Assembly: GCA_964342385.1 (NCBI GenBank)
Contig: CAYFGP010000003.1
Coordinates: 69,244-133,243 of the forward strand
Source of the DNA: an uncultured Oleiphilus sp.
GTDB lineage: Bacteria; Pseudomonadota; Gammaproteobacteria; Pseudomonadales; Halomonadaceae
Length of the DNA stretch: 64,000 nucleotides
Direction of reading: 5' to 3'
Below, piece after piece: positions 8,190 to 32,800 of the stretch. The notes beneath the pieces were generated by a model, which was not told the origin of the DNA, did no database searches, and saw nothing but the letters and a program-made list of their open reading frames with translations. The translations under genes and the position numbers were made by a program. The stretch's first letter is position 1. Each line of letters starts with the position of its first letter.

Positions 8190-10391
8190 TTGAATATGAA
8201 CGCAGCCACCATTTTATCCGTGAAAGAGTTTTCACTGGGATATCACAACGGTAAAGGCGAACTGGTTAAGGTACTGAGAAACGTTAATCTGGATATTGCT
8301 CATGGCGAGACCATTGGTCTGGTGGGTGAGTCCGGGTGTGGTAAAAGTACTCTGGCCTTGGCGCTGATGGGCTTTTTACGTTCGGGTTCTCAAGTACTGA
8401 ACGGCGATATTCTATATAAGCCAGAAGAGGCCGATAGCAAAGCATTGTTTACTCTGCCGGAAAAACAGATCGAAGCAATGCGTGGTAAACAGATCGGTCT
8501 GATTCCACAAAACGCCGGTCAATCCCTGACTCCGACTATGACGATTGGCCGCCAGTTGGAAGAAGCGCTTAAGCTGCATACCCTGTTACCAAAAGAGCAG
8601 TGGTATGGACGTTGTCTGGAGCTATTGGCCCAGGTGCGTTTACCAGCACCGGAAGCGATGATGGAGCGTTATCCGCACCAGTTATCCGGTGGTCAGCAGC
8701 AGCGTGTCGCCATTGCGATGGCGCTGGCCGGTAACCCCGATGTCTTATTGTTGGATGAACCTACTACTGGTCTGGATGTGACCACCCAGGCTCATATTCT
8801 GGAGCTATTACGGGATCTGCGTGCTGAGCTAGGTACCAGTATGGTGTTTGTCAGTCATGATCTGGGTGTGATTGCCCGAATCAGTGATCGCATTGCTGTA
8901 ATGTATGCCGGTGAAGTGATTGAGTTGGGTAGTTCTGCTGATGTATTGCGTCACCCTGCTCATGCCTATACCCGAGGTCTGCTGGCTTCGATTCCACGTT
9001 TACACCAGCAGGGTTTGCCACCGGCGATGCCCGGTTATCCACCAAAAGTGGGTTCGGTGAACCTGGGCTGTGCCTTTGCCCCTCGTTGTGCCCAGTGCCT
9101 GCCGAAGTGTAGCAGTCAGGATGCGCCGATTCGTGCCTTGCCTGCGATGACTTCATCAGCTGCAGCTTCACAAGCGCGTTTGGTGCGCTGTCATCTGCCG
9201 GAAGATACCCTGATTCAAAGCCAGCCCGTTGAACTGGTACAGGTACCGGAACAAGCGCAGGGTGAAACCTTGCTGGATCTGGATCAGGTGGCGGTGAGTT
9301 ATCAGAAATCCAGTTGGATGGATAAGCTGATCGCCAGCACTCTGGAAAAGACGGGTTTAAAACAATCTGCCATTCATAAAGGCAAAGAGAGTGATATCCC
9401 GACAGTGGACGATATCAGTCTGCAGGTAAAACAGGGCGAAACCTTGGCTTTGGTGGGTGAATCCGGTAGTGGTAAATCTACGATTATGAAGGCGATCAGC
9501 GGTGTCCATGCCGCCCGGAATGGCGATATCCAATTGGCCAGCGATAGCCTGAATCAATCCGTTGATAAGCGTCATCCTGCGTTGAAGCGTCGGGTGCAGA
9601 TGATCTTCCAAAACCCTGATGCTTCTTTAAATCCCCGTCATACGGTAGCTGAGATTCTGGCCCAACCGCTGAAACTCTATTTTGGTCTGACCGGTGATGA
9701 GAGCCGTGCTAAAGCCGCTGAGCTATTAAGCAAGGTACGACTGGGCGCTCATTATCTGGATCGTATGCCTGGGCAGCTGTCCGGTGGTGAAAAACAGCGT
9801 GTGGCCATTGCCCGTTGTTTTGCTGGTGATCCTGAGCTGATTTTGTGTGATGAGGTGACTTCGGCACTGGATGTCTCGGTACAGGCGGCGGTACTCAAAC
9901 TGCTGAAAGAGTTGCAGGCAGAGAAAGGCGTGACCTATCTGTTTATCGCCCACGATCTGGCAGTAGTTCAAGCCATTGCAGATCAGGTTGCGGTATTGTA
10001 CCAAGGCCGTCTGGTACAGGTGGGCTCTGTTAATGATGTCTTCCAGGGGCCGCATCACCCCTATACCGAAACCCTGTTAAAAGCGGTACTGGAACCCGAT
10101 CCTGATCATAGCCCGGAACTGTTGGCCAGTGATCAACCGGAGCAACATCCACCAGCACAGGGCTGTGCTTATCAGCGCCGCTGCAACCGTGCTACTGAGC
10201 AGTGTATGCAGCAAACTCCACCGTGGCAGGAAGTGCTGTCTTCAGATGTTGGTAAAGGCGAAAACGTTGCCACTAACCGTATTCGTTGCCATCTACCACT
10301 GGAATCCCTGTCGGCAGAACTCGCAGAACCTGTAGAAGCCAATGACATTCTGGTTAATACCAGTGAGCCAGAGACGGTTTGTGCGGCTTAA
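8190..10391 (+). CDS. Fused double ABC ATPase (DppD-DppF-like); start may be the ATG at 8196
   Basis: Two NBDs: GESGCGKS/LSGGQQQR/LLDEPT and GESGSGKS/LSGGEKQR/LCDEVT, each followed by a Cys-rich oligopeptide-ABC C-terminal domain. Confidence 0.92.
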   Translation: MNMNAATILSVKEFSLGYHNGKGELVKVLRNVNLDIAHGETIGLVGESGCGKSTLALALMGFLRSGSQVLNGDILYKPEEADSKALFTLPEKQIEAMRGKQIGLIPQNAGQSLTPTMTIGRQLEEALKLHTLLPKEQWYGRCLELLAQVRLPAPEAMMERYPHQLSGGQQQRVAIAMALAGNPDVLLLDEPTTGLDVTTQAHILELLRDLRAELGTSMVFVSHDLGVIARISDRIAVMYAGEVIELGSSADVLRHPAHAYTRGLLASIPRLHQQGLPPAMPGYPPKVGSVNLGCAFAPRCAQCLPKCSSQDAPIRALPAMTSSAAASQARLVRCHLPEDTLIQSQPVELVQVPEQAQGETLLDLDQVAVSYQKSSWMDKLIASTLEKTGLKQSAIHKGKESDIPTVDDISLQVKQGETLALVGESGSGKSTIMKAISGVHAARNGDIQLASDSLNQSVDKRHPALKRRVQMIFQNPDASLNPRHTVAEILAQPLKLYFGLTGDESRAKAAELLSKVRLGAHYLDRMPGQLSGGEKQRVAIARCFAGDPELILCDEVTSALDVSVQAAVLKLLKELQAEKGVTYLFIAHDLAVVQAIADQVAVLYQGRLVQVGSVNDVFQGPHHPYTETLLKAVLEPDPDHSPELLASDQPEQHPPAQGCAYQRRCNRATEQCMQQTPPWQEVLSSDVGKGENVATNRIRCHLPLESLSAELAEPVEANDILVNTSEPETVCAA

Positions 10392-23007: not shown

Positions 23008-23089
23008 GTCCAGTTTTTACTGGTTTTTACCTCGATCCCGCAAGGGAGAGAGCTCTGCACTTTCCCCGCCGATTTGGCGGGTTTTTTTT
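23008..23089 (+). ncRNA. Candidate ~80-nt small RNA ending in an intrinsic terminator
   Basis: Extended -10-like TGtTACATT at 22992-23000; hairpins CCAGT-TTTT-ACTGG and CTC(GA)TCCC-GCAA-GGGAGAG (GNRA loop); terminator CCCGCC-gattt-GGCGGG-T8 at 23065-23089. No family assigned. Confidence 0.4.
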
Positions 23090-24998: not shown

Positions 24999-26331
24999 TT
25001 GGCAAACTTATACCCTTGGTGACGTATGTGAAAAGATTACTGACGGTGCTCATCAAAGCCCTAAGTCTGTAGACGATGGTAAGCCAATGGCTTCTGTTAA
25101 GGATTTAAGCTACTTTGGGGTAGATTTATCGGGTGCACGAAAAATATCTCAAGAGGATTTTGACTCTCTCGTAAGGCAAGGCTGCAAGCCTGAAATTGGT
25201 GATGTCCTAATTGCTAAGGATGGTAATACCGCTTTAGATACAGTTTGCACTGTGGATAAAGAATTAGATGCAGTTCTTCTATCTTCTGTTGCAATATTAA
25301 GGCCTAATTCAGAAAAGGTTGATTCCGAGTTCTTGAAATATTATTTGTCTTCACCACGGACAATTGATTATCTGAAGTCAAATTTTATATCTGGTGCAGC
25401 TATTCCTAGGGTCGTGTTGCGTGATTTTAGAAAAGCGCTTATTACACTACCACCCGTTAGCTTACAGTTGAGAATTTCAAACATTCTTCGCTCTATAGAT
25501 AAAAAGATTCTGAATAATATTGAATCAAACCAAACCTTAGAAGAAATGGCTCAAGCCCTCTTCAAATCTTGGTTTGTAGATTTTGACCCAGTTAAAGCCA
25601 AAATGAGTAGTGAACAGCCGGTAGGTATGGGTCAGGAAACAGCGGAGCTTTTCCCTAATAGACTTGTGAGTTCTGAGTTAGGAATGATTCCTGATGGATG
25701 GGATGTTGGTACGATTGATTCATATACGACGCTGATTATTGATCACCGTGGCAAAACACCAAAGAAACTTGGCAGTGACTGGGTTGAAAGTGGTTACCCT
25801 GCAATATCTGCAAAAAATATCAAATCAAAGAAAATTGTCAGAGAAGATACTATCCGCTTTATTAATGAAGCAACTTATAGAAAATGGATGAAGGAGCCAT
25901 TGGTCAAGGGGGATATTATTATGACTTCCGAAGCACCAATGGGGGAGCTTTATTTCTATGATGGAGTTTCACCGTTTTGTCTAAGCCAAAGGCTATATGG
26001 ATTACGTGCAAACCCACAGCTTACTTCACCTGAGTTTCTATATTTCTGGTTGCAAACAGTTAAAGCTCAATCAGATATGGAAGGTCGAGCTTCAGGTACA
26101 ACAGCACTAGGTATTAAACAAGCTGAATTAAGAAAAGTTAAAGTACTTAGCCCTCCAATTTGGTTAGTGAGAAAATTTAGCCAGTTTGTTGGAGGCTTAG
26201 TCGAACTGTCGGCTGAAAATAATAGATCAAATGAGTCGTTGATAAACTTGCGTGATACTCTTCTACCTAAACTCCTATCTGGTGAGATTCAGCTATCTGA
26301 AACTGAAAGCCTGACTGGGGCGGTAGTGTGA
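24988..26331 (+). CDS. hsdS: Type I RM specificity subunit
   Basis: Two variable TRDs separated by conserved NQTLEEMAQALFKSWFVDFDP and a terminal LRDTLLPKLLSGE; overlaps the hsdM stop by 11 nt; AT-richer than hsdM. Confidence 0.95.
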   Translation: MTSNWQTYTLGDVCEKITDGAHQSPKSVDDGKPMASVKDLSYFGVDLSGARKISQEDFDSLVRQGCKPEIGDVLIAKDGNTALDTVCTVDKELDAVLLSSVAILRPNSEKVDSEFLKYYLSSPRTIDYLKSNFISGAAIPRVVLRDFRKALITLPPVSLQLRISNILRSIDKKILNNIESNQTLEEMAQALFKSWFVDFDPVKAKMSSEQPVGMGQETAELFPNRLVSSELGMIPDGWDVGTIDSYTTLIIDHRGKTPKKLGSDWVESGYPAISAKNIKSKKIVREDTIRFINEATYRKWMKEPLVKGDIIMTSEAPMGELYFYDGVSPFCLSQRLYGLRANPQLTSPEFLYFWLQTVKAQSDMEGRASGTTALGIKQAELRKVKVLSPPIWLVRKFSQFVGGLVELSAENNRSNESLINLRDTLLPKLLSGEIQLSETESLTGAVV

Positions 26332-26410
26332 TGTGGTTGGCTCTTGCTCTAAGTAGTTTAGAGTCATTCTCAGCATATATCGTATCTTAAAAAATAGATT
26401 AGGTATTCTG

Positions 26411-27430
26411 ATGATTACTGATTTTGAGTTAAAGAACTTTGGCCCTATTAATCAGATATCAGGTCATTCTCTGAGCTCAATCAATCTGATTATTGGAGAT
26501 AATGGGGCAGGAAAAACCTTTCTGCTTAAAGCTTTATATAGTGCACTAAAAAGTCATGAGAGTACTGATCAAAGTGATGGGCAGCGAGGTTTTTCAAAGG
26601 TTTTATCTAATAAACTATCTCGCACTTTTCAAACAGAGAAAGTTGGAGATCTTGTTTCAAAAGGGAAAGGAAAGAGGCTACAGCTAACTTTAAACACCAA
26701 AGATAATCAATATTTAGTGTTTTCTTTTGGGGCGGAAACTAAAAGTAAGATTACTCAGTTGCAGAATCATCTAGAGTCGAGAGGTGCAAGTACAGTATTT
26801 TTGCCTTCTCAAGAAGTGTTATCTCCGACTCCTGTTATTTTGGATTCCCAATTACGGGATAATGCATTTGCTTTTGATGACACCTGCTTGGATCTAGCCT
26901 TAGCATTACAAAAGCAATCCCAGCCATCGGCCGACAGCGATACTTTATCTCTAGCAAGCCGACAATTAGGCGCAATGCTGGGTGGCAAGATTGAGTTTGA
27001 TACCGTTAAACGATGTTGGGTCTATAAAAAGAGAAATAGTCGATATCCAATATCTGCAGTCGCCGATGGCTTTAAGAAGATTGCAACTTTTGATATCTTG
27101 TTAAGAAATCGCTTTATCAATGAAGGCTCTATAGTATTTGTTGATACACCTGAATCGGCTTTGCACCCTACAAACGTTGTCGAACTCTTAGACGTAATCA
27201 GCTTGTTAGCTCAATCTGGTGTTCAGTTCTTTATCGCTAGTCATTCCTATTTCGTGATTAAAAAACTGTTGTTGGTAGCCAATAATGAGAAAATGCAAAT
27301 ACCTGTGTTTGTTGCAGACAATGCAGGTGACTGGAGACAAAGCTGTTTATTAGAAGATGGCTTGCCTGAGAACGAGATTATTAATAAGTCAATACGCTTA
27401 TTTGAGCAAGAGTTTACAGGAAGCTTCTGA
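26411..27430 (+). CDS. ABC/AAA_21-like ATPase with non-canonical Walker B
   Basis: Walker A GDNGAGKT, signature-like ADGFKK, Walker B FVDTPESALHP (usually DEPE), H-loop ASHS. Confidence 0.82.
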   Translation: MITDFELKNFGPINQISGHSLSSINLIIGDNGAGKTFLLKALYSALKSHESTDQSDGQRGFSKVLSNKLSRTFQTEKVGDLVSKGKGKRLQLTLNTKDNQYLVFSFGAETKSKITQLQNHLESRGASTVFLPSQEVLSPTPVILDSQLRDNAFAFDDTCLDLALALQKQSQPSADSDTLSLASRQLGAMLGGKIEFDTVKRCWVYKKRNSRYPISAVADGFKKIATFDILLRNRFINEGSIVFVDTPESALHPTNVVELLDVISLLAQSGVQFFIASHSYFVIKKLLLVANNEKMQIPVFVADNAGDWRQSCLLEDGLPENEIINKSIRLFEQEFTGSF

Positions 27431-27490
27431 TGGTTTTACTGAATAAATCAGGCATTTCATTTAAAAAGCTTTGGCTGGAGGGGTAAAGCT

Positions 27491-28564
27491 ATGAAGCCCC
27501 CTTTTACTATTACCAGTGAAATACTGACTCTGGTTGCCAATATCAGCGAGCTGGTGGGGCGCTTAACTGAGCAGTTGGCTTCTCAGCATGATGTTCGTTT
27601 ACGTCGGGTAAACCGGGTGCGAACGATTCAGGGCTCTTTGGCAATTGAAGGTAACACCTTAAGCGAAGAACAGATTACGGCTATTTTGGCGGGTAAAAGG
27701 GTGATCGCTCCACCTCGTGAAGTACAGGAAGCCCAGAATGCGATTAAGGTTTATGATCAGTTCTCTTTCCTGCAATTTGGTAGTGAGCAGGATCTGTTAA
27801 AAGCCCATAAAACCCTGATGCTTGGCTTAATTGATACTGCAGGCGCATATCGTTCAGGTGGTGTGGGGGTTATGAAAGGTGATCAGGTGATTCATATGGC
27901 ACCGCCTGCGAATCGTGTTCCTGTTTTGATGGGCGATTTAATGCGCTGGTTGAAACAAAGCCAGGATCACCCGCTGATCAAAAGCTGTGTTTTTCATTAT
28001 GAGTTTGAATTTATCCATCCGTTTGCTGATGGCAATGGTCGTATGGGGCGTTTGTGGCAAAGTCTGATATTGGCTGAGTGGCAGCCGTTATTTGCTAACT
28101 TGCCCGTTGAGAGTTTGATCCACCAGTATCAGGATGAGTACTATGCTGCGATTAATCGAAGTACTCAGATTACAGACTCTGCACCTTTTATCGAATTTAT
28201 GCTCAAGATGATTCTTGATGTATTAGAAGAGGGGGCTGAGAGTGCGGGAGAGCAGCAGACCCGCCAAGTCAGCCCTCAAGAAACCCACCAAGTTAGCCCT
28301 CAAGTTATCCGTGCTGATATAGGCTTAAAATATGCTGATATTTCACCTCAGGTGCAGCTGTTATTGCAGTCTGTAAAAGGAGAAATGTTACGAGGGGAGT
28401 TGCAACAAAAACTGGGTCTAAAAGATCGGGCTTCTTTCCGAACTCGTTATTTAAAGCCTGCTATTGAAGGTGGTTGGCTAGAGATGACACAACCCGATAA
28501 ACCAACAAGTCGTACCCAGCGTTATCGTTTAACGGCAAAAGCCAAGAGCTATCTACAGCCTTAA
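27491..28564 (+). CDS. Fic family protein with C-terminal winged-helix domain
   Basis: Canonical HPFADGNGRMGR motif; QVSPQ-repeat linker; C-terminal LKPAIEGGWLEMTQPDKPTSRTQRYRLT. Confidence 0.92.
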   Translation: MKPPFTITSEILTLVANISELVGRLTEQLASQHDVRLRRVNRVRTIQGSLAIEGNTLSEEQITAILAGKRVIAPPREVQEAQNAIKVYDQFSFLQFGSEQDLLKAHKTLMLGLIDTAGAYRSGGVGVMKGDQVIHMAPPANRVPVLMGDLMRWLKQSQDHPLIKSCVFHYEFEFIHPFADGNGRMGRLWQSLILAEWQPLFANLPVESLIHQYQDEYYAAINRSTQITDSAPFIEFMLKMILDVLEEGAESAGEQQTRQVSPQETHQVSPQVIRADIGLKYADISPQVQLLLQSVKGEMLRGELQQKLGLKDRASFRTRYLKPAIEGGWLEMTQPDKPTSRTQRYRLTAKAKSYLQP

Positions 28565-28604
28565 TAATTGAATATTAATCGGTGTAGAACATATAGAGAT
28601 ATGG

Positions 28605-29801
28605 ATGATGAAAGCACCTCTACATGATAGTCATTATGTAATAGAGAAGGTTGAGCAGTATCTTCAAAATAAATTGGATGAAAACAGAGGCTTTAATGAC
28701 GAAGTAAATAGTAGTGCTCTGGTTGAAATTGCTAAGGAAGGGCCAAAAGTTAAAGTTACTAGCTTAACTGATCCCGAGACGCATTTTAGCTATGATGTTA
28801 GTGATATTCTATTTTGGATAGAAAGAGAAACATATTTCGATGAATTTTCAAAATGGAATGGTGCTAAGCTGACCGATAAGCATGAATCTACAATTGATTA
28901 TCTGAGAAAGACGAATCAGCTTCCGTTATTCCAGGATCTAATTGCGGCAATACAGCGACAACGTATCGCCCCTTTTATTGGTGCTGGAGCATCTTATCCT
29001 GCTGGATATCCAATCTGGAGGGATGCTCTAGAGTCTTTAGCTAAACAGCTTGGAGATAATGTTTTTGCAGAGATTAAAGATGCTTTAGATGAGTATCGTT
29101 ATCTCTATGTTGCCGAACACTTATACAAGAAAAATGAACCTTTTTTTAATAATTACATACAAACTGATTTTCGCTTAAAGCCTAGGTATGAAGAAGATGA
29201 TCCTATTTTTCCTCCTGTTATAGAAGTATTACCTATGCTGGCCAAAGGATGTATAGTAACAACTAACTTTGATAGGCTAATTGAGAAAAAATTTGAACAA
29301 GTGAATAGTAGACCTTTGGCTGGTTATATGTATGGTAAACAAGCTGAGAATGGTTTTGTCAGTCAGCTCTTAAAGGGTGAAAACTGTTTGATGAAGTTGC
29401 ATGGTGACTTAGAACAGAGTCAATCTTATGTATTTACCGAATCTCAGTACAATGAAGCGTATGGGACTGAGGAAATTGATTTTTCTAAACAGCTACCTCG
29501 ATCATTACGCCAGATTTATATCAGTTATTCCCTATTATTTATTGGTTGTTCGTTAGAACAGGATCGTACACTGGATCTGTTTCAATCAGTTAAGGCTCAA
29601 GGTCATTTCGAAATCCCAAGTCATTTTGCATTATTACCTGAGTCTGAAGGAGAAGATAAAGCTACAAAGATGGGGCGCCTTCTGGATATGAATATCAGGC
29701 CTATCTGGTATGAGTCGAAAGATAAAGATCACTCTATGCTAGAAAAGTTGCTGCTACTCGCCATTGATGTAGCTGAGAAGAAGTTTAGTCTGGGAGGTTA
29801 A
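28605..29801 (+). CDS. SIR2-like (SIR2_2) domain protein, predicted NAD+ hydrolase, with ~105-aa N-terminal domain
   Basis: PFIGAGAS, IVTTNFD, MKLHGD and LLFIGCSL sirtuin motifs; AT-rich; stop is 3 nt before the hsdR ATG. Confidence 0.88.
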   Translation: MMKAPLHDSHYVIEKVEQYLQNKLDENRGFNDEVNSSALVEIAKEGPKVKVTSLTDPETHFSYDVSDILFWIERETYFDEFSKWNGAKLTDKHESTIDYLRKTNQLPLFQDLIAAIQRQRIAPFIGAGASYPAGYPIWRDALESLAKQLGDNVFAEIKDALDEYRYLYVAEHLYKKNEPFFNNYIQTDFRLKPRYEEDDPIFPPVIEVLPMLAKGCIVTTNFDRLIEKKFEQVNSRPLAGYMYGKQAENGFVSQLLKGENCLMKLHGDLEQSQSYVFTESQYNEAYGTEEIDFSKQLPRSLRQIYISYSLLFIGCSLEQDRTLDLFQSVKAQGHFEIPSHFALLPESEGEDKATKMGRLLDMNIRPIWYESKDKDHSMLEKLLLLAIDVAEKKFSLGG

Positions 29802-29804
29802 GGC

Positions 29805-32800
29805 ATGATTACTGAAGATCAATTAGAACAGAATTGCCTCCTATGGTTTCAAGACATTGGCTATGACTATTGTTCAGGTGTCGGTATTGCCCCTGATGGA
29901 GAGAATCCTGAACGGGATGATTATTATCAGGTGGTGTTAAAGCCGCGTTTATCTGAGCGTTTGGCGCTGCTGAATCCTGAGTTAAGTTCGGATGTGCTGG
30001 AGCAGGTTGTTCAGACTGTGTGCACCCCTGAAACACCTGTGTTGATCAAGAATAACCGTAGCTTTCATAAATATCTGATCGAGGGTGTGCCGGTTGAATA
30101 CAGTGTCATTGAGGACGGTCAGTCGGTTAGCAAGCACAGTCATGCTCGGCTAATGGATTTTGATCAGCCAGATAATAATGATTTTCTGGTGGTGAATCAG
30201 TTTACCGTTAAAGGCCGTTCCAGTTCGGGACAAAACAGCACCCGTCGTCCTGATGTGGTGGTGTTTATTAATGGTTTGCCCATTAGTGTGATTGAACTGA
30301 AAAATCCGGCGGATGAACATGCGGATATCTGGAATGCTTTTAATCAGCTGCAAACCTATAAAGACGATATCAGTGATCTGTTTATCTTCAATGAGGCTTT
30401 GGTGATCAGCGATGGTTGGCAAGCGCGGGTAGGGTCGTTAACGGCGAACAGAGAACGCTTTTTACCCTGGAAGACCATTAAGAGTGAAGACGATAAGCCG
30501 CTGTTAGAGTATCAGTTAGAAACGCTGATTCGGGGCTTTTTCCAGCCTGAGCTGCTACTGGACTATATCCGTTATTTTATTCTGTTTGAAAATGCGACAG
30601 AGGCGAGTAGCGATAGTCTGATTAAGAAGATTGCGGCTTACCATCAGTTCCATGCGGTGCGTGCGGCGGTTAAAGCAACGGTGATTGCGGCACAGCCTTC
30701 AGAGAAAGTGGCTGAACCCCGTGCGACTTATGCCGAACGTGTATTACCGGGCAGTAAAAAGGCGGGGGTGGTCTGGCATACTCAGGGCAGTGGTAAAAGC
30801 ATCTCTATGGTGTGTTATGCCAGTAAGTTGTTGCAGCAACCGAGTATGAATAACCCAACACTGGTGGTGGTGACAGATCGTAATGATCTACACGGTCAGC
30901 TGTTTAATACCTTTAGTACGGCTCATGAGACGCTGAAGCAACTTCCGCAAGAAGCAGGTAGCCGTGATGGTCTACGTGAACTGTTATTCAGCCGTCAATC
31001 CGGCGGTATTATTTTTACCACGATTCAAAAGTTTGCTCTGCTGGACGGCGAGCTAAATCATCCGGTGTTATCAAAGCGGGATAATATTGTGGTGGTATCC
31101 GATGAGGCCCACCGTAGTCAATATGGTAATACAGCCAAACTGGTGGATATTAAGGACAAAGACGGTGCCGTCATTGAGCAGCGCTACGTCTACGGTTACT
31201 CCAAATATCTGCGTGATGCCTTGCCTAATGCTTCCTTTATCGGTTTTACCGGCACCCCCATTGCTCTGGATGATAAGGATACACGGGGTGTGTTTGGTGA
31301 CTATGTCTCTATCTATGATATTCAGGATGCGGTAGATGATGGTGCGACGGTGCCTATCTATTATGAATCCCGTTTAGCCAAACTTGATATTCAACAACAG
31401 GATATTGAGGCGTTAAACGATCAGGTGGAAGACGAGATCGCTGAAGAAGATGAGCTAGCGGCCCGAGAGCAGATTAAATCCAAATGGTCGGCGCTGGAAA
31501 AGCTGGTGGGAGCTGAACCTCGGATAGAGGAAGTGGCGAAGGATCTGATTGCCCATTTCACTACCCGTACCAAGACATTCCCTGGCAAGGCGATGATTGT
31601 TGGTATGAGCCGAGAGATCTGTGTGGATCTCTACGACGCCATCACCAAGCTGAGGCCCGACTGGCACAACGATGATCCCAAGCAGGGCGCTATTAAGGTA
31701 GTAATGACAGGGAGCGCCTCAGATAAAGAGAAACTACAGCAGCATATTTATGATTCTAAAACCAAAAAGCATTTTGAGAAGCGCTTTAAAGATACCGCTG
31801 ACCCGCTACAGCTGGTGATTGTACGGGATATGTGGCTGACCGGTTTTGATGCTCCTTGCTGTCACACCATGTACGTGGATAAACCAATGCGTGGCCATAA
31901 CCTGATGCAGGCGATTGCACGGGTAAACCGGGTGTTTAAAGATAAACCCGGTGGTCTGGTGGTGGATTATATCGGTATCGCCAATGAGCTGAAAAATGCG
32001 CTGAAGACCTACACCAACAGCTCCGGTAAAGGTCAACCTACGGTTGATACGGCGGAAGCTTTCTCTCTGCTGCAGGAAAAGATCGATATTATTCGGGGCA
32101 TGTTTGCCACACCGGTTGACGGTCAGGTGTTCCACTATCGGCCAGATTTTGAAACTCAAGCGCTGCGTTTATTACCTGACGCCGCCAATCATATTGTCAG
32201 TTTAGTTATCCCTAGCGCCAATAACCCCGAAGGTGAAAGAAGTGGCAAACGTCGCTTTCTGGATGTGATGGCTGCCCTCAGTAAGACCTATTCTCTGTGT
32301 AACACTCTGGATGAGGTACAGGAATACAAAACTGAAATCGCGTTTTATTCGGCCATTAAAGCGGCATTTCTTAAACACTCCAATGTGGATAAAAAACGCA
32401 GCGATGAGGCTCGTAACTCAGCCCTGAAACAGATCCTGGATAACGCCATTACCGCTGATGGAGTAGATGATATCTTTGCGATGGTCGGTCTCGATAAGCC
32501 AGATATCAGTCTGTTGTCGGAAGAGTTTCTGGAAGACGTGCAAAATATGCCGCAGCAAAATCTTGCGGTTGAGCTATTGGAAAAACTACTGCGGGATGAA
32601 GTCAAAGCCCGCATGAAAACTGATGTGGTACAGGAGCGTAAATACTCTGACCTCATTACAGAAACTCTGAAAAAGTATCACAATCGTAGCATTGAAACCG
32701 CCCAGGTGATTGAGGAACTGATCCAGTGGGCAAAAGAGATGGCTGCTGATGCTGAAATGGCCAGCCGACTGAAACTGTCCCCTGATGAGATCGCGTTTTA

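Follow-up and report, generated by a model that had tools for sequence, protein, structure and literature searches.

What is a gene for a SIR2-family protein doing between the specificity and restriction genes of a type I restriction-modification (RM) operon, the same slot that is held by prrC in the EcoprrI system? The question is raised by a 64,000-nucleotide (nt) stretch of DNA from an uncultured Oleiphilus sp. (contig CAYFGP010000003.1 of assembly GCA_964342385.1, positions 69,244 to 133,243 of the forward strand), hereafter the window, in which an operon of hsdM, hsdS and hsdR carries, immediately ahead of hsdR, a gene for a protein with a SIR2 domain. An earlier note, made from the letters of the window, had suggested that this protein might be a standalone guard that monitors the Hsd complex, or anti-restriction proteins such as Ocr or ArdA, and triggers an abortive depletion of NAD+. 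The comparative genomics described below gives strong support both to the positional analogy with PrrC and to a link in function with type I restriction. We think there is about an even chance that the protein is a PrrC-like, restriction-coupled NAD+ hydrolase (NADase) that guards the restriction enzyme and acts by abortive infection; its activity, its latency, its contact with the Hsd proteins and its trigger are all features that we infer.

Genomic context of the SIR2 family

The SIR2 reading frame is not a chance one, since a protein search returned 153 homologues (best non-self E 8.5e-187) and since N221, D223 and H266 of its product are invariant in 79 aligned sequences. Nearly all of the homologues are full length, at 370-406 amino acids (aa), and they are annotated as 'SIR2 family protein' at most. 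A pattern scan of 185,579 species-representative genomes yielded 103 confirmed loci, 80 of which were retrieved for context analysis; neighbours were detected by tblastn with the window's own proteins, and counts were made only over loci with enough flanking sequence to be informative. In this survey, which the earlier note had called for as a search for the arrangement hsdS-x-hsdR, hsdR was found downstream of the SIR2 gene and on the same strand in 74 of 74 informative loci, with hsdS directly upstream in 70 of 73 and hsdM upstream in 58 of 59. Far from being found mostly outside RM loci, the family is thus represented in the informative set by type I RM operons alone, and the constant neighbours across the 80 homologous loci are hsdM, hsdS and hsdR, with no SIR2-partner gene. 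The hosts include Gamma-, Beta- and Alphaproteobacteria, Bacteroidota, Acidobacteriota, Cyanobacteriota, Planctomycetota, Nitrospira, a Bacillus and Methanosarcinales/Methanoperedens, and the order hsdM-hsdS-SIR2-hsdR also occurs on annotated plasmids, including one from Ketogulonicigenium whose SIR2 copy is 27% identical. The nearest relatives of both the SIR2 and the Hsd proteins are from Photobacterium, Vibrio and Shewanella, and the window as a whole is covered by contigs from marine metagenome runs (share of sampled words 1.00), which makes a marine gammaproteobacterial source probable. Neither 5,426 E. coli genomes, searched with DNA, nor 50,697 phage records, searched with protein, returned a match to the SIR2 family.

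The junctions with the flanking hsd genes are tight. In most loci the start of the SIR2 gene overlaps the hsdS stop by 1, 4 or 8 nt or is no more than ~20 nt away from it, and in ~57 of 77 loci the distance from the SIR2 stop to the hsdR start is between -4 and +34 nt. The gap in the other ~20 holds either further embedded genes, here called cargo (~17 loci), or a non-coding spacer of ~225-310 nt (L013, L016 and L025); other loci have cargo between hsdM and hsdS instead. In the window the TAA stop of the SIR2 gene ends at 29801 and the hsdR ATG begins at 29805, which leaves the 3 nt that the earlier note had read. These are GGC, and the SIR2 gene closes with the codons GGAGGT, which resemble a Shine-Dalgarno sequence for hsdR. 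The assignment to the PrrC slot is right in that the gene lies between hsdS and hsdR, but in the window it shares this interval with genes for an ABC-type ATPase and a Fic-family protein. The SIR2 protein also diverges together with its neighbours: pairwise SIR2 distances correlate with those of HsdR (r = 0.85) and HsdM (r = 0.87; Mantel p = 0.001, n = 59), the HsdR-HsdM correlation being 0.90 for comparison.

The dependence runs in one direction. Because near-identical RM operons carry other cargo, the SIR2 family appears to need the RM context, whereas the RM system does not need SIR2. Close HsdR relatives from metagenomes and plasmids, 75-78% identical to that of the window, have other genes in the hsdS-hsdR slot. 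It holds DUF4268/PDC-S11, or an FRG protein (PDC-S15) whose C-terminal tail resembles that of HsdR, plus AlbA_2 and NERD-UvrD genes, or HrgA, Fic with DUF4268, or PD-(D/E)xK nucleases. Only 2 of 16 plasmid HsdRs of at least 75% identity are accompanied by SIR2, and a metagenome HsdR scan contributed 8 loci that served as SIR2-less controls and are too few for cargo frequencies. HEC-02, another cargo of the same slot, is found outside RM loci too, so that the exclusivity described above is particular to this SIR2 family.

One of these alternative cargo proteins deserves a remark of its own. The last segment of the FRG protein (L087:3585-4919 and L083:249-1550) is homologous to the very C-terminal end of HsdR (Pfam T1RH-like_C positions 249-325, E 4.7e-10) and has the motif VDW..R.S..AR.RN.VRR.LRR..(F/Y)P(P/D)D. 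This HsdR tail hints that some embedded effectors may dock on the methyltransferase core as HsdR does.

A defence-type SIR2 domain and a family-specific N-terminal domain

The sirtuin motifs that the earlier note had described as intact are indeed so when read directly from the DNA: GAGAS (aa 126-130, at 28980-28994), TTNFD (aa 219-223, at 29259-29273, with N221 at 29265-29267 and D223 at 29271-29273) and KLHG (aa 264-267, at 29394-29405, with H266 at 29400-29402). G126, A127 and G128 share the invariance of N221, D223 and H266 across the alignment. Over aa 216-367 the protein matches Pfam SIR2_2 (PF13289) at E 2.1e-28, scoring 99.6 bits where the gathering threshold is 24.5, and its motifs align with TTNYD and KMHGD of ThsA. 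Profile matches in the PDB are to SeThsA (7uxt, E 4.6e-18), BcThsA (6lhx, E 5.5e-17), KomC (8zsf, E 1.6e-14) and DSR2 (8k98, E 3e-13). An AlphaFold2 (AF2) model of the full-length protein has a mean predicted local distance difference test score (pLDDT) of 92 and a predicted template-modelling score (pTM) of 0.85, and a Foldseek search with the SIR2 domain ranks BcThsA, KomC and DSR2 best (E 7e-15 to 1e-11), with E 6.8e-15 for 8btp (ThsA) and 2.8e-13 for 9xvc (KomC). ThsA, KomC and DSR2 are NAD+ hydrolases that serve as abortive effectors. Judged by sequence and modelled fold, the SIR2 protein is a SIR2_2 member of the ThsA/KomC/DSR2 clade, and its conserved catalytic residues together with this similarity lead us to predict that it has NADase activity.

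The SIR2 fold begins at about aa 100-110 in both the PDB profile alignments and the Foldseek superpositions, so that aa 1 to ~105 constitute an extra N-terminal domain, in agreement with the ~105-aa unassigned region of the earlier note. This N-domain is modelled as a helical hairpin, a beta-hairpin and a long helix (pLDDT 84 in AF2 for the isolated domain), and its residues W71 and Y77 are invariant. Fold searches with the isolated domain gave no significant match in the PDB (best E 0.69) or among the viral structures of BFVD (best E 0.3). A profile of the domain run against 1.84 billion representative sequences matched 49 clusters, all at the N-terminus and all in proteins of at most 403 aa, and found it in no other architecture or fusion. 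It is the fastest-evolving part of the protein, with a mean pairwise identity of 0.34 as against 0.48 for the SIR2 domain. SIR2_2 relatives that have no N-domain occur in non-RM contexts.

Three further loci bear on this domain. On the Hymenobacter plasmid NZ_CP110137 (L097:1-6822), an N-domain-less SIR2_2 gene follows, on one strand, genes for a DUF4007 protein, a large hypothetical protein, a PAPS-reductase-family protein and a DUF262 protein, and it looks like an attachment to a DNA-phosphorothioation-like (Ssp/Dnd-type) module. The Cyanobium homologue (L069:9732-10843) matches only from residue 109, its N-domain being missing or diverged, and in an Accumulibacter metagenome-assembled genome (L078:10001-10672) the SIR2 gene is truncated at its N-terminal end and hsdR is interrupted by ~2.4 kb. 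The Cyanobium and Accumulibacter copies may be decaying.

Proposed guarding of the restriction enzyme and competing explanations

How might such a protein work? In the model that we favour, it would be made from the same operon as the RM enzyme, usually with translational coupling to both hsdS and hsdR, and its unique N-domain would tie it functionally to one type I RM lineage. It would stay latent as long as the Hsd complex is normal. A phage that disables or overwhelms restriction, for example with a DNA-mimic or peptide anti-restriction protein, would then switch it on, and the resulting collapse of NAD+ would stop phage growth. The exclusive synteny, the tight junctions, the co-divergence with HsdM and HsdR, the invariant catalytic residues and the matches to defence NADases all point towards such a guard. 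We also entertain, somewhat more tentatively, the possibility that the RM enzyme has a fourth component in the SIR2 protein, physically bound to it, so that either inhibition of Hsd, by a DNA mimic or a peptide, or its engagement with unmodified DNA would lead to NAD+ collapse and the N-domain would serve for docking or sensing.

The closest precedent is PrrC itself. It occupies the same slot in EcoprrI, and it shows the same one-way dependence, its family being found almost only in type I RM operons that can do without it. The Hsd complex keeps PrrC latent until an anti-restriction peptide from a phage frees it (PMC3506569; Payne et al., preprint 10.1101/2024.01.29.577857). The two proteins are not homologous, however: PrrC joins an ABC-ATPase to a HEPN RNase that cuts tRNA-Lys, whereas the protein of the window joins an orphan N-domain to a SIR2 fold, and scans of Pfam, PADLOC, NCBIfam and the PDB returned only SIR2-type matches for it. 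The RM lineages differ as well, the HsdR of the window being only distantly related to that of the type IC enzyme EcoR124I (E 1e-27, aa 141-601).

Besides the phage peptide Stp, unmodified DNA can reportedly activate PrrC (PMC3506569), and this lends some substance to a different RM-dependent scheme, in which an Hsd complex working on unmodified DNA, with HsdR translocating or stalled, would activate the SIR2 protein so that NAD+ loss accompanies restriction, as in short pAgo-SIR2 and SIR2-HerA systems. Synteny, coupling and co-divergence fit this scheme just as they fit a guard, and the sequence offers nothing that separates the two. We nevertheless regard it as improbable, given the risk of self-killing whenever unmodified sites arise in the host. 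Less probable still is a regulatory enzyme that would ADP-ribosylate or deacylate an Hsd subunit or DNA and so tune restriction, for instance during establishment or restriction alleviation. Mono-ADP-ribosylation has been raised for RM-linked Sir2 enzymes (Makarova et al. 2012, PMC3506569), and tight operon integration and co-divergence would also suit a regulatory subunit. The close structural relatives, however, are all NAD+ hydrolases and abortive effectors, and RM operons readily swap SIR2 for nucleases or toxin-like cargo, which suggests that one effector displaces another.

Several observations weigh against the guard model. The hsdS-hsdR slot is a hot-spot that accepts PDC-S11, PDC-S15, PDC-S02, HEC-02, Abi_2, AlbA_2, HrgA and Fic, and the exclusivity of the SIR2 family could also come from cassette exchange by homologous recombination confined to related flanks. 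The HsdR of Shewanella aestuarii, whose operon has no SIR2 gene, is 91-92% identical to several SIR2-bearing HsdRs and closer to them than some of those are to each other, from which it follows that cargo has been exchanged within the clade and that HsdR carries no SIR2-specific adaptation. Profile-profile comparison with hhalign revealed no docking module common to the SIR2 family and HsdR or HsdM (probability <1%), and neither the homologues nor the N-domain profile matches include a SIR2-Hsd fusion protein. Finally, in Vibrionales bacterium SWAT-3 (L002:4754-14424) two transposase genes of insertion sequence (IS) elements stand in place of hsdM and only a C-terminal remnant of hsdS is left (8771-9175), while a 270-aa cargo gene, the SIR2 gene (399 aa) and hsdR are all intact despite the loss of hsdM. 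This locus argues against the SIR2 protein being lethal without the methyltransferase, though it may be unexpressed there.

These observations raise the possibility of an autonomous, single-protein defence, in which the N-domain would sense a phage component much as DSR2 senses the tail tube, and the RM operon would be a landing site and expression platform in which the gene is kept by recombination between hsd flanks. The many unrelated cargo families of the slot, the swapping of cargo between near-identical operons and the intact SIR2 gene of SWAT-3, which has lost hsdM and full-length hsdS, would all be expected on this account, as would the rapid evolution of the N-domain if it is a phage-facing sensor; several of the cargo families have relatives that function when taken out of their natural setting (Payne et al., preprint 10.1101/2024.01.29.577857). 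Still, an exclusivity of 74 in 74 that extends into archaea and down to 27% identity is hard to obtain through flank homology alone, particularly as the slot's other cargo is not confined to it. The N-domain, moreover, is only ~105 aa long with no recognisable ligand- or protein-binding fold, and the translational coupling to hsdS is strongly conserved. An autonomous role is therefore in our estimation unlikely, although it is the alternative that we take most seriously.

Could the SIR2 protein instead belong to one of the defence systems already described? ThsA is the best match to its SIR2 domain in both sequence and structure, and the motifs TTN(F/Y)D and K(L/M)HGD are common to the two. 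ThsA, however, has a C-terminal SLOG or Macro sensor, whereas the SIR2 protein ends at aa 398 without one, and the N-terminal extension of ThsA is unlike the N-domain. The PADLOC ThsA model is covered only at positions 8-232 of 478, its SIR2 part, to which the matches with the PDB chains are likewise confined, and Pfam and PADLOC scans of the operon found no ThsB/TIR gene. With neither a SLOG domain nor a TIR gene, membership of Thoeris was rejected. DSR1 and DSR2 likewise defend as single polypeptides with a SIR2 NADase, and their SIR2 domain is similar (Foldseek ~1e-12), but they are ~1000-1260 aa long, have a large C-terminal sensor and are not tied to RM; at 398 aa, and with 24.8 bits against a cut-off of 1400 for the NCBIfam Dsr1 model, the protein was rejected as a DSR. 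KomC is a compact SIR2 NADase of the same clade (target-normalised template-modelling (TM) score 0.78 for 9xvc), but it acts together with KomA, KomB and a nucleotide signal and has no N-domain, and komA and komB genes are absent here. SIR2-HerA, short pAgo-SIR2, Lamassu and Kongming were rejected because the operon of the window holds no HerA, pAgo, LmuB or KomA/B.

The family is closer in its genomic habit to the embedded-defence genes of type I RM, BREX and DISARM operons (the HEC and PDC models of PADLOC), with which it shares the pattern of 'guilt-by-embedding' that has been systematised for type I RM operons by Payne et al. (preprint 10.1101/2024.01.29.577857). Most such cargo also occurs elsewhere, whereas the SIR2 family was never seen outside its slot. 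The term 'SIR2' is absent from the text and supplements of that preprint that were searched (10.1101/2024.01.29.577857), and the best PADLOC PDC match of the protein is a partial one to PDC-S25 (E 2.7e-9). Neither the current defence-annotation libraries (PADLOC v2, NCBIfam) nor Pfam contain a dedicated model for the family. The concept that we propose, an abortive response to Ocr-like inhibitors of type I RM enzymes, is the same as that of PARIS, whose proteins AriA and AriB (an ABC ATPase and a TOPRIM protein) are unrelated to SIR2. Ronin, also unrelated, is a sensor of anti-restriction proteins made of a nuclease and an HsdMS decoy. PARIS and Ocr are both mentioned by Payne et al. (preprint 10.1101/2024.01.29.577857).

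The guard concept is not new. Already in 2012, Sir2 enzymes were described as 'linked to Type I RM systems' and RM components were proposed to restrain such toxins in the manner of PrrC (Makarova, Anantharaman, Aravind & Koonin, PMC3506569). That work sets out the same association and the same logic of coupling immunity to suicide as we propose for the SIR2 family, and it does so as a general statement and a figure, without a family definition, N-domain, quantified exclusivity, co-divergence or experiments; Sir2 was at that time viewed as a nuclease or ADP-ribosyltransferase rather than a NADase. The literature searched contained no experimental study of this SIR2 family. What is new is a defined family, its orphan N-domain, a quantified exclusivity and a restriction-guarding model that is directly testable.

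To our knowledge, no abortive effector wired to a restriction enzyme other than PrrC has been well studied in decades of work. The SIR2 family adds a second, non-homologous family with a PrrC-like strict genomic dependence and with, as we predict, the well-understood chemistry of SIR2 NADases. Should the protein prove to be a fourth RM component, restriction enzymes would have their first NAD-depleting guard, and the PrrC principle a second independent case, widespread from archaea to bacteria. The family could thus show whether the guarding of restriction enzymes is a general design, and the level of NAD+ would offer a simple read-out for studying the signals that Hsd complexes give when phage anti-restriction proteins inhibit them. 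Because compact four-gene operons are present in culturable Vibrio, Photobacterium, Plesiomonas, Pseudomonas and Bacillus, the question can be put to a direct test.

Layout of the locus and neighbouring genes

The features of the restriction island are collected in Table 1. The seven genes from hsdM to the PLD-like gene are all co-directional, hsdM and hsdS overlapping by 11 nt. The hairpin ahead of hsdM is likely to mark the left edge of the island, and GC content falls 3' of it.

Table 1. Features of the type I RM operon and its surroundings (positions of the window)
Feature	Position	Strand	Details
Strong terminator-like hairpin and T-run	23065..23081	+	7-bp stem with 6 G-C pairs, T8 tail; 3' of upstream housekeeping gene
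hsdM, type I DNA methyltransferase subunit, 572 aa	23280..24998	+	Pfam N6_Mtase E 2.8e-108, HsdM_N E 5e-21; PADLOC MTase_I E 1.5e-171
hsdS, specificity subunit, 447 aa	24988..26331	+	Pfam Methylase_S in two stretches; PADLOC Specificity_I E 1.7e-97
ABC-type ATPase, 339 aa (embedded cargo 1)	26411..27430	+	PADLOC HEC-02A E 3.2e-125, positions 1-334 of 338; Pfam AAA_21, AAA_15
Fic-family protein, 357 aa (embedded cargo 2)	27491..28564	+	Pfam Fic E 2.9e-21, Fic-like_C E 5.9e-27; PADLOC SoFic E 1.3e-41
SIR2 protein, 398 aa	28605..29801	+	ATG start, second ATG at 28608; TAA stop at 29799-29801
SIR2 protein, N-terminal domain, aa 1-105	28605..28919	+	Family-specific
SIR2_2 catalytic domain, aa 106-398, and stop codon	28920..29801	+	Pfam PF13289
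hsdR, type I restriction/translocase subunit, 1084 aa	29805..33059	+	Pfam HSDR_N, SWI2_SNF2, T1R_D3-like, T1RH-like_C; PADLOC REase_I 1151 bits
PLD-like protein, 394 aa	33148..34332	+	Pfam PLDc_2 E 1.3e-7, aa 28-147; weak PADLOC matches to ZacB and DrmC

The interval between hsdS and hsdR thus holds three genes, those for the ATPase, the Fic protein and the SIR2 protein, separated by gaps of 79 nt (hsdS-ATPase), 60 nt (ATPase-Fic) and 40 nt (Fic-SIR2). The ATPase resembles the first component of HEC-02, a system of an ABC ATPase and a NERD nuclease that are both required for defence (Payne et al., preprint 10.1101/2024.01.29.577857). Since the window contains no remnant of the NERD partner HEC-02B, its ATPase is an orphan; complete A+B pairs are found at locus L022 and on two plasmids (L095 and L096). 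The orphan represents either a decayed system or one that has been re-paired with a new effector. The Fic protein retains its active-site motif HPFADGNGR, and an N-terminal SLAIEG resembles an inhibitory helix (both read from the translation). It is 62% identical to a Fic protein encoded directly after hsdS on the Shewanella aestuarii plasmid (L094:5842-6852), in an operon with neither the ATPase nor SIR2, and Fic thus seems to recur in this RM lineage as a cargo in its own right. The metatranscriptome of the same sample is uninformative on expression, with a single contig of 163 nt in Fic and nothing over SIR2.

This arrangement invites the idea of a cassette particular to the window, in which the SIR2 protein would be the effector of a three-gene system with the upstream ATPase and Fic. 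An ATPase bereft of its usual NERD partner might have recruited a neighbouring effector, and in Lamassu sirtuin effectors do have an ABC ATPase as partner (Payne et al., preprint 10.1101/2024.01.29.577857). Yet some 80 SIR2 loci are without both genes, so that the 'standalone' of the earlier note was a fair description, Fic occupies the same slot without the ATPase or SIR2, the three gaps show no coupling, and the ATPase is not LmuB-like. The ATPase, Fic and SIR2 genes occur independently of one another, and a three-gene system was on this ground largely rejected; we consider it very improbable.

The PLD-like gene starts 88 nt after hsdR, within the lower-GC island, and has its PLDc_2 match in the N-terminal part of the product, whose C-terminal half is unassigned. 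It is not conserved beside other SIR2 operons; it may be a further defence gene of the island, its membership being uncertain. GC content is 0.385-0.42 over hsdS and the three embedded genes (window positions 25000-30000), as compared with 0.45-0.50 for hsdM and hsdR and, for the housekeeping genes on either side, ~0.49-0.51. Such a dip across the middle of the operon is consistent with a recent exchange of its variable middle.

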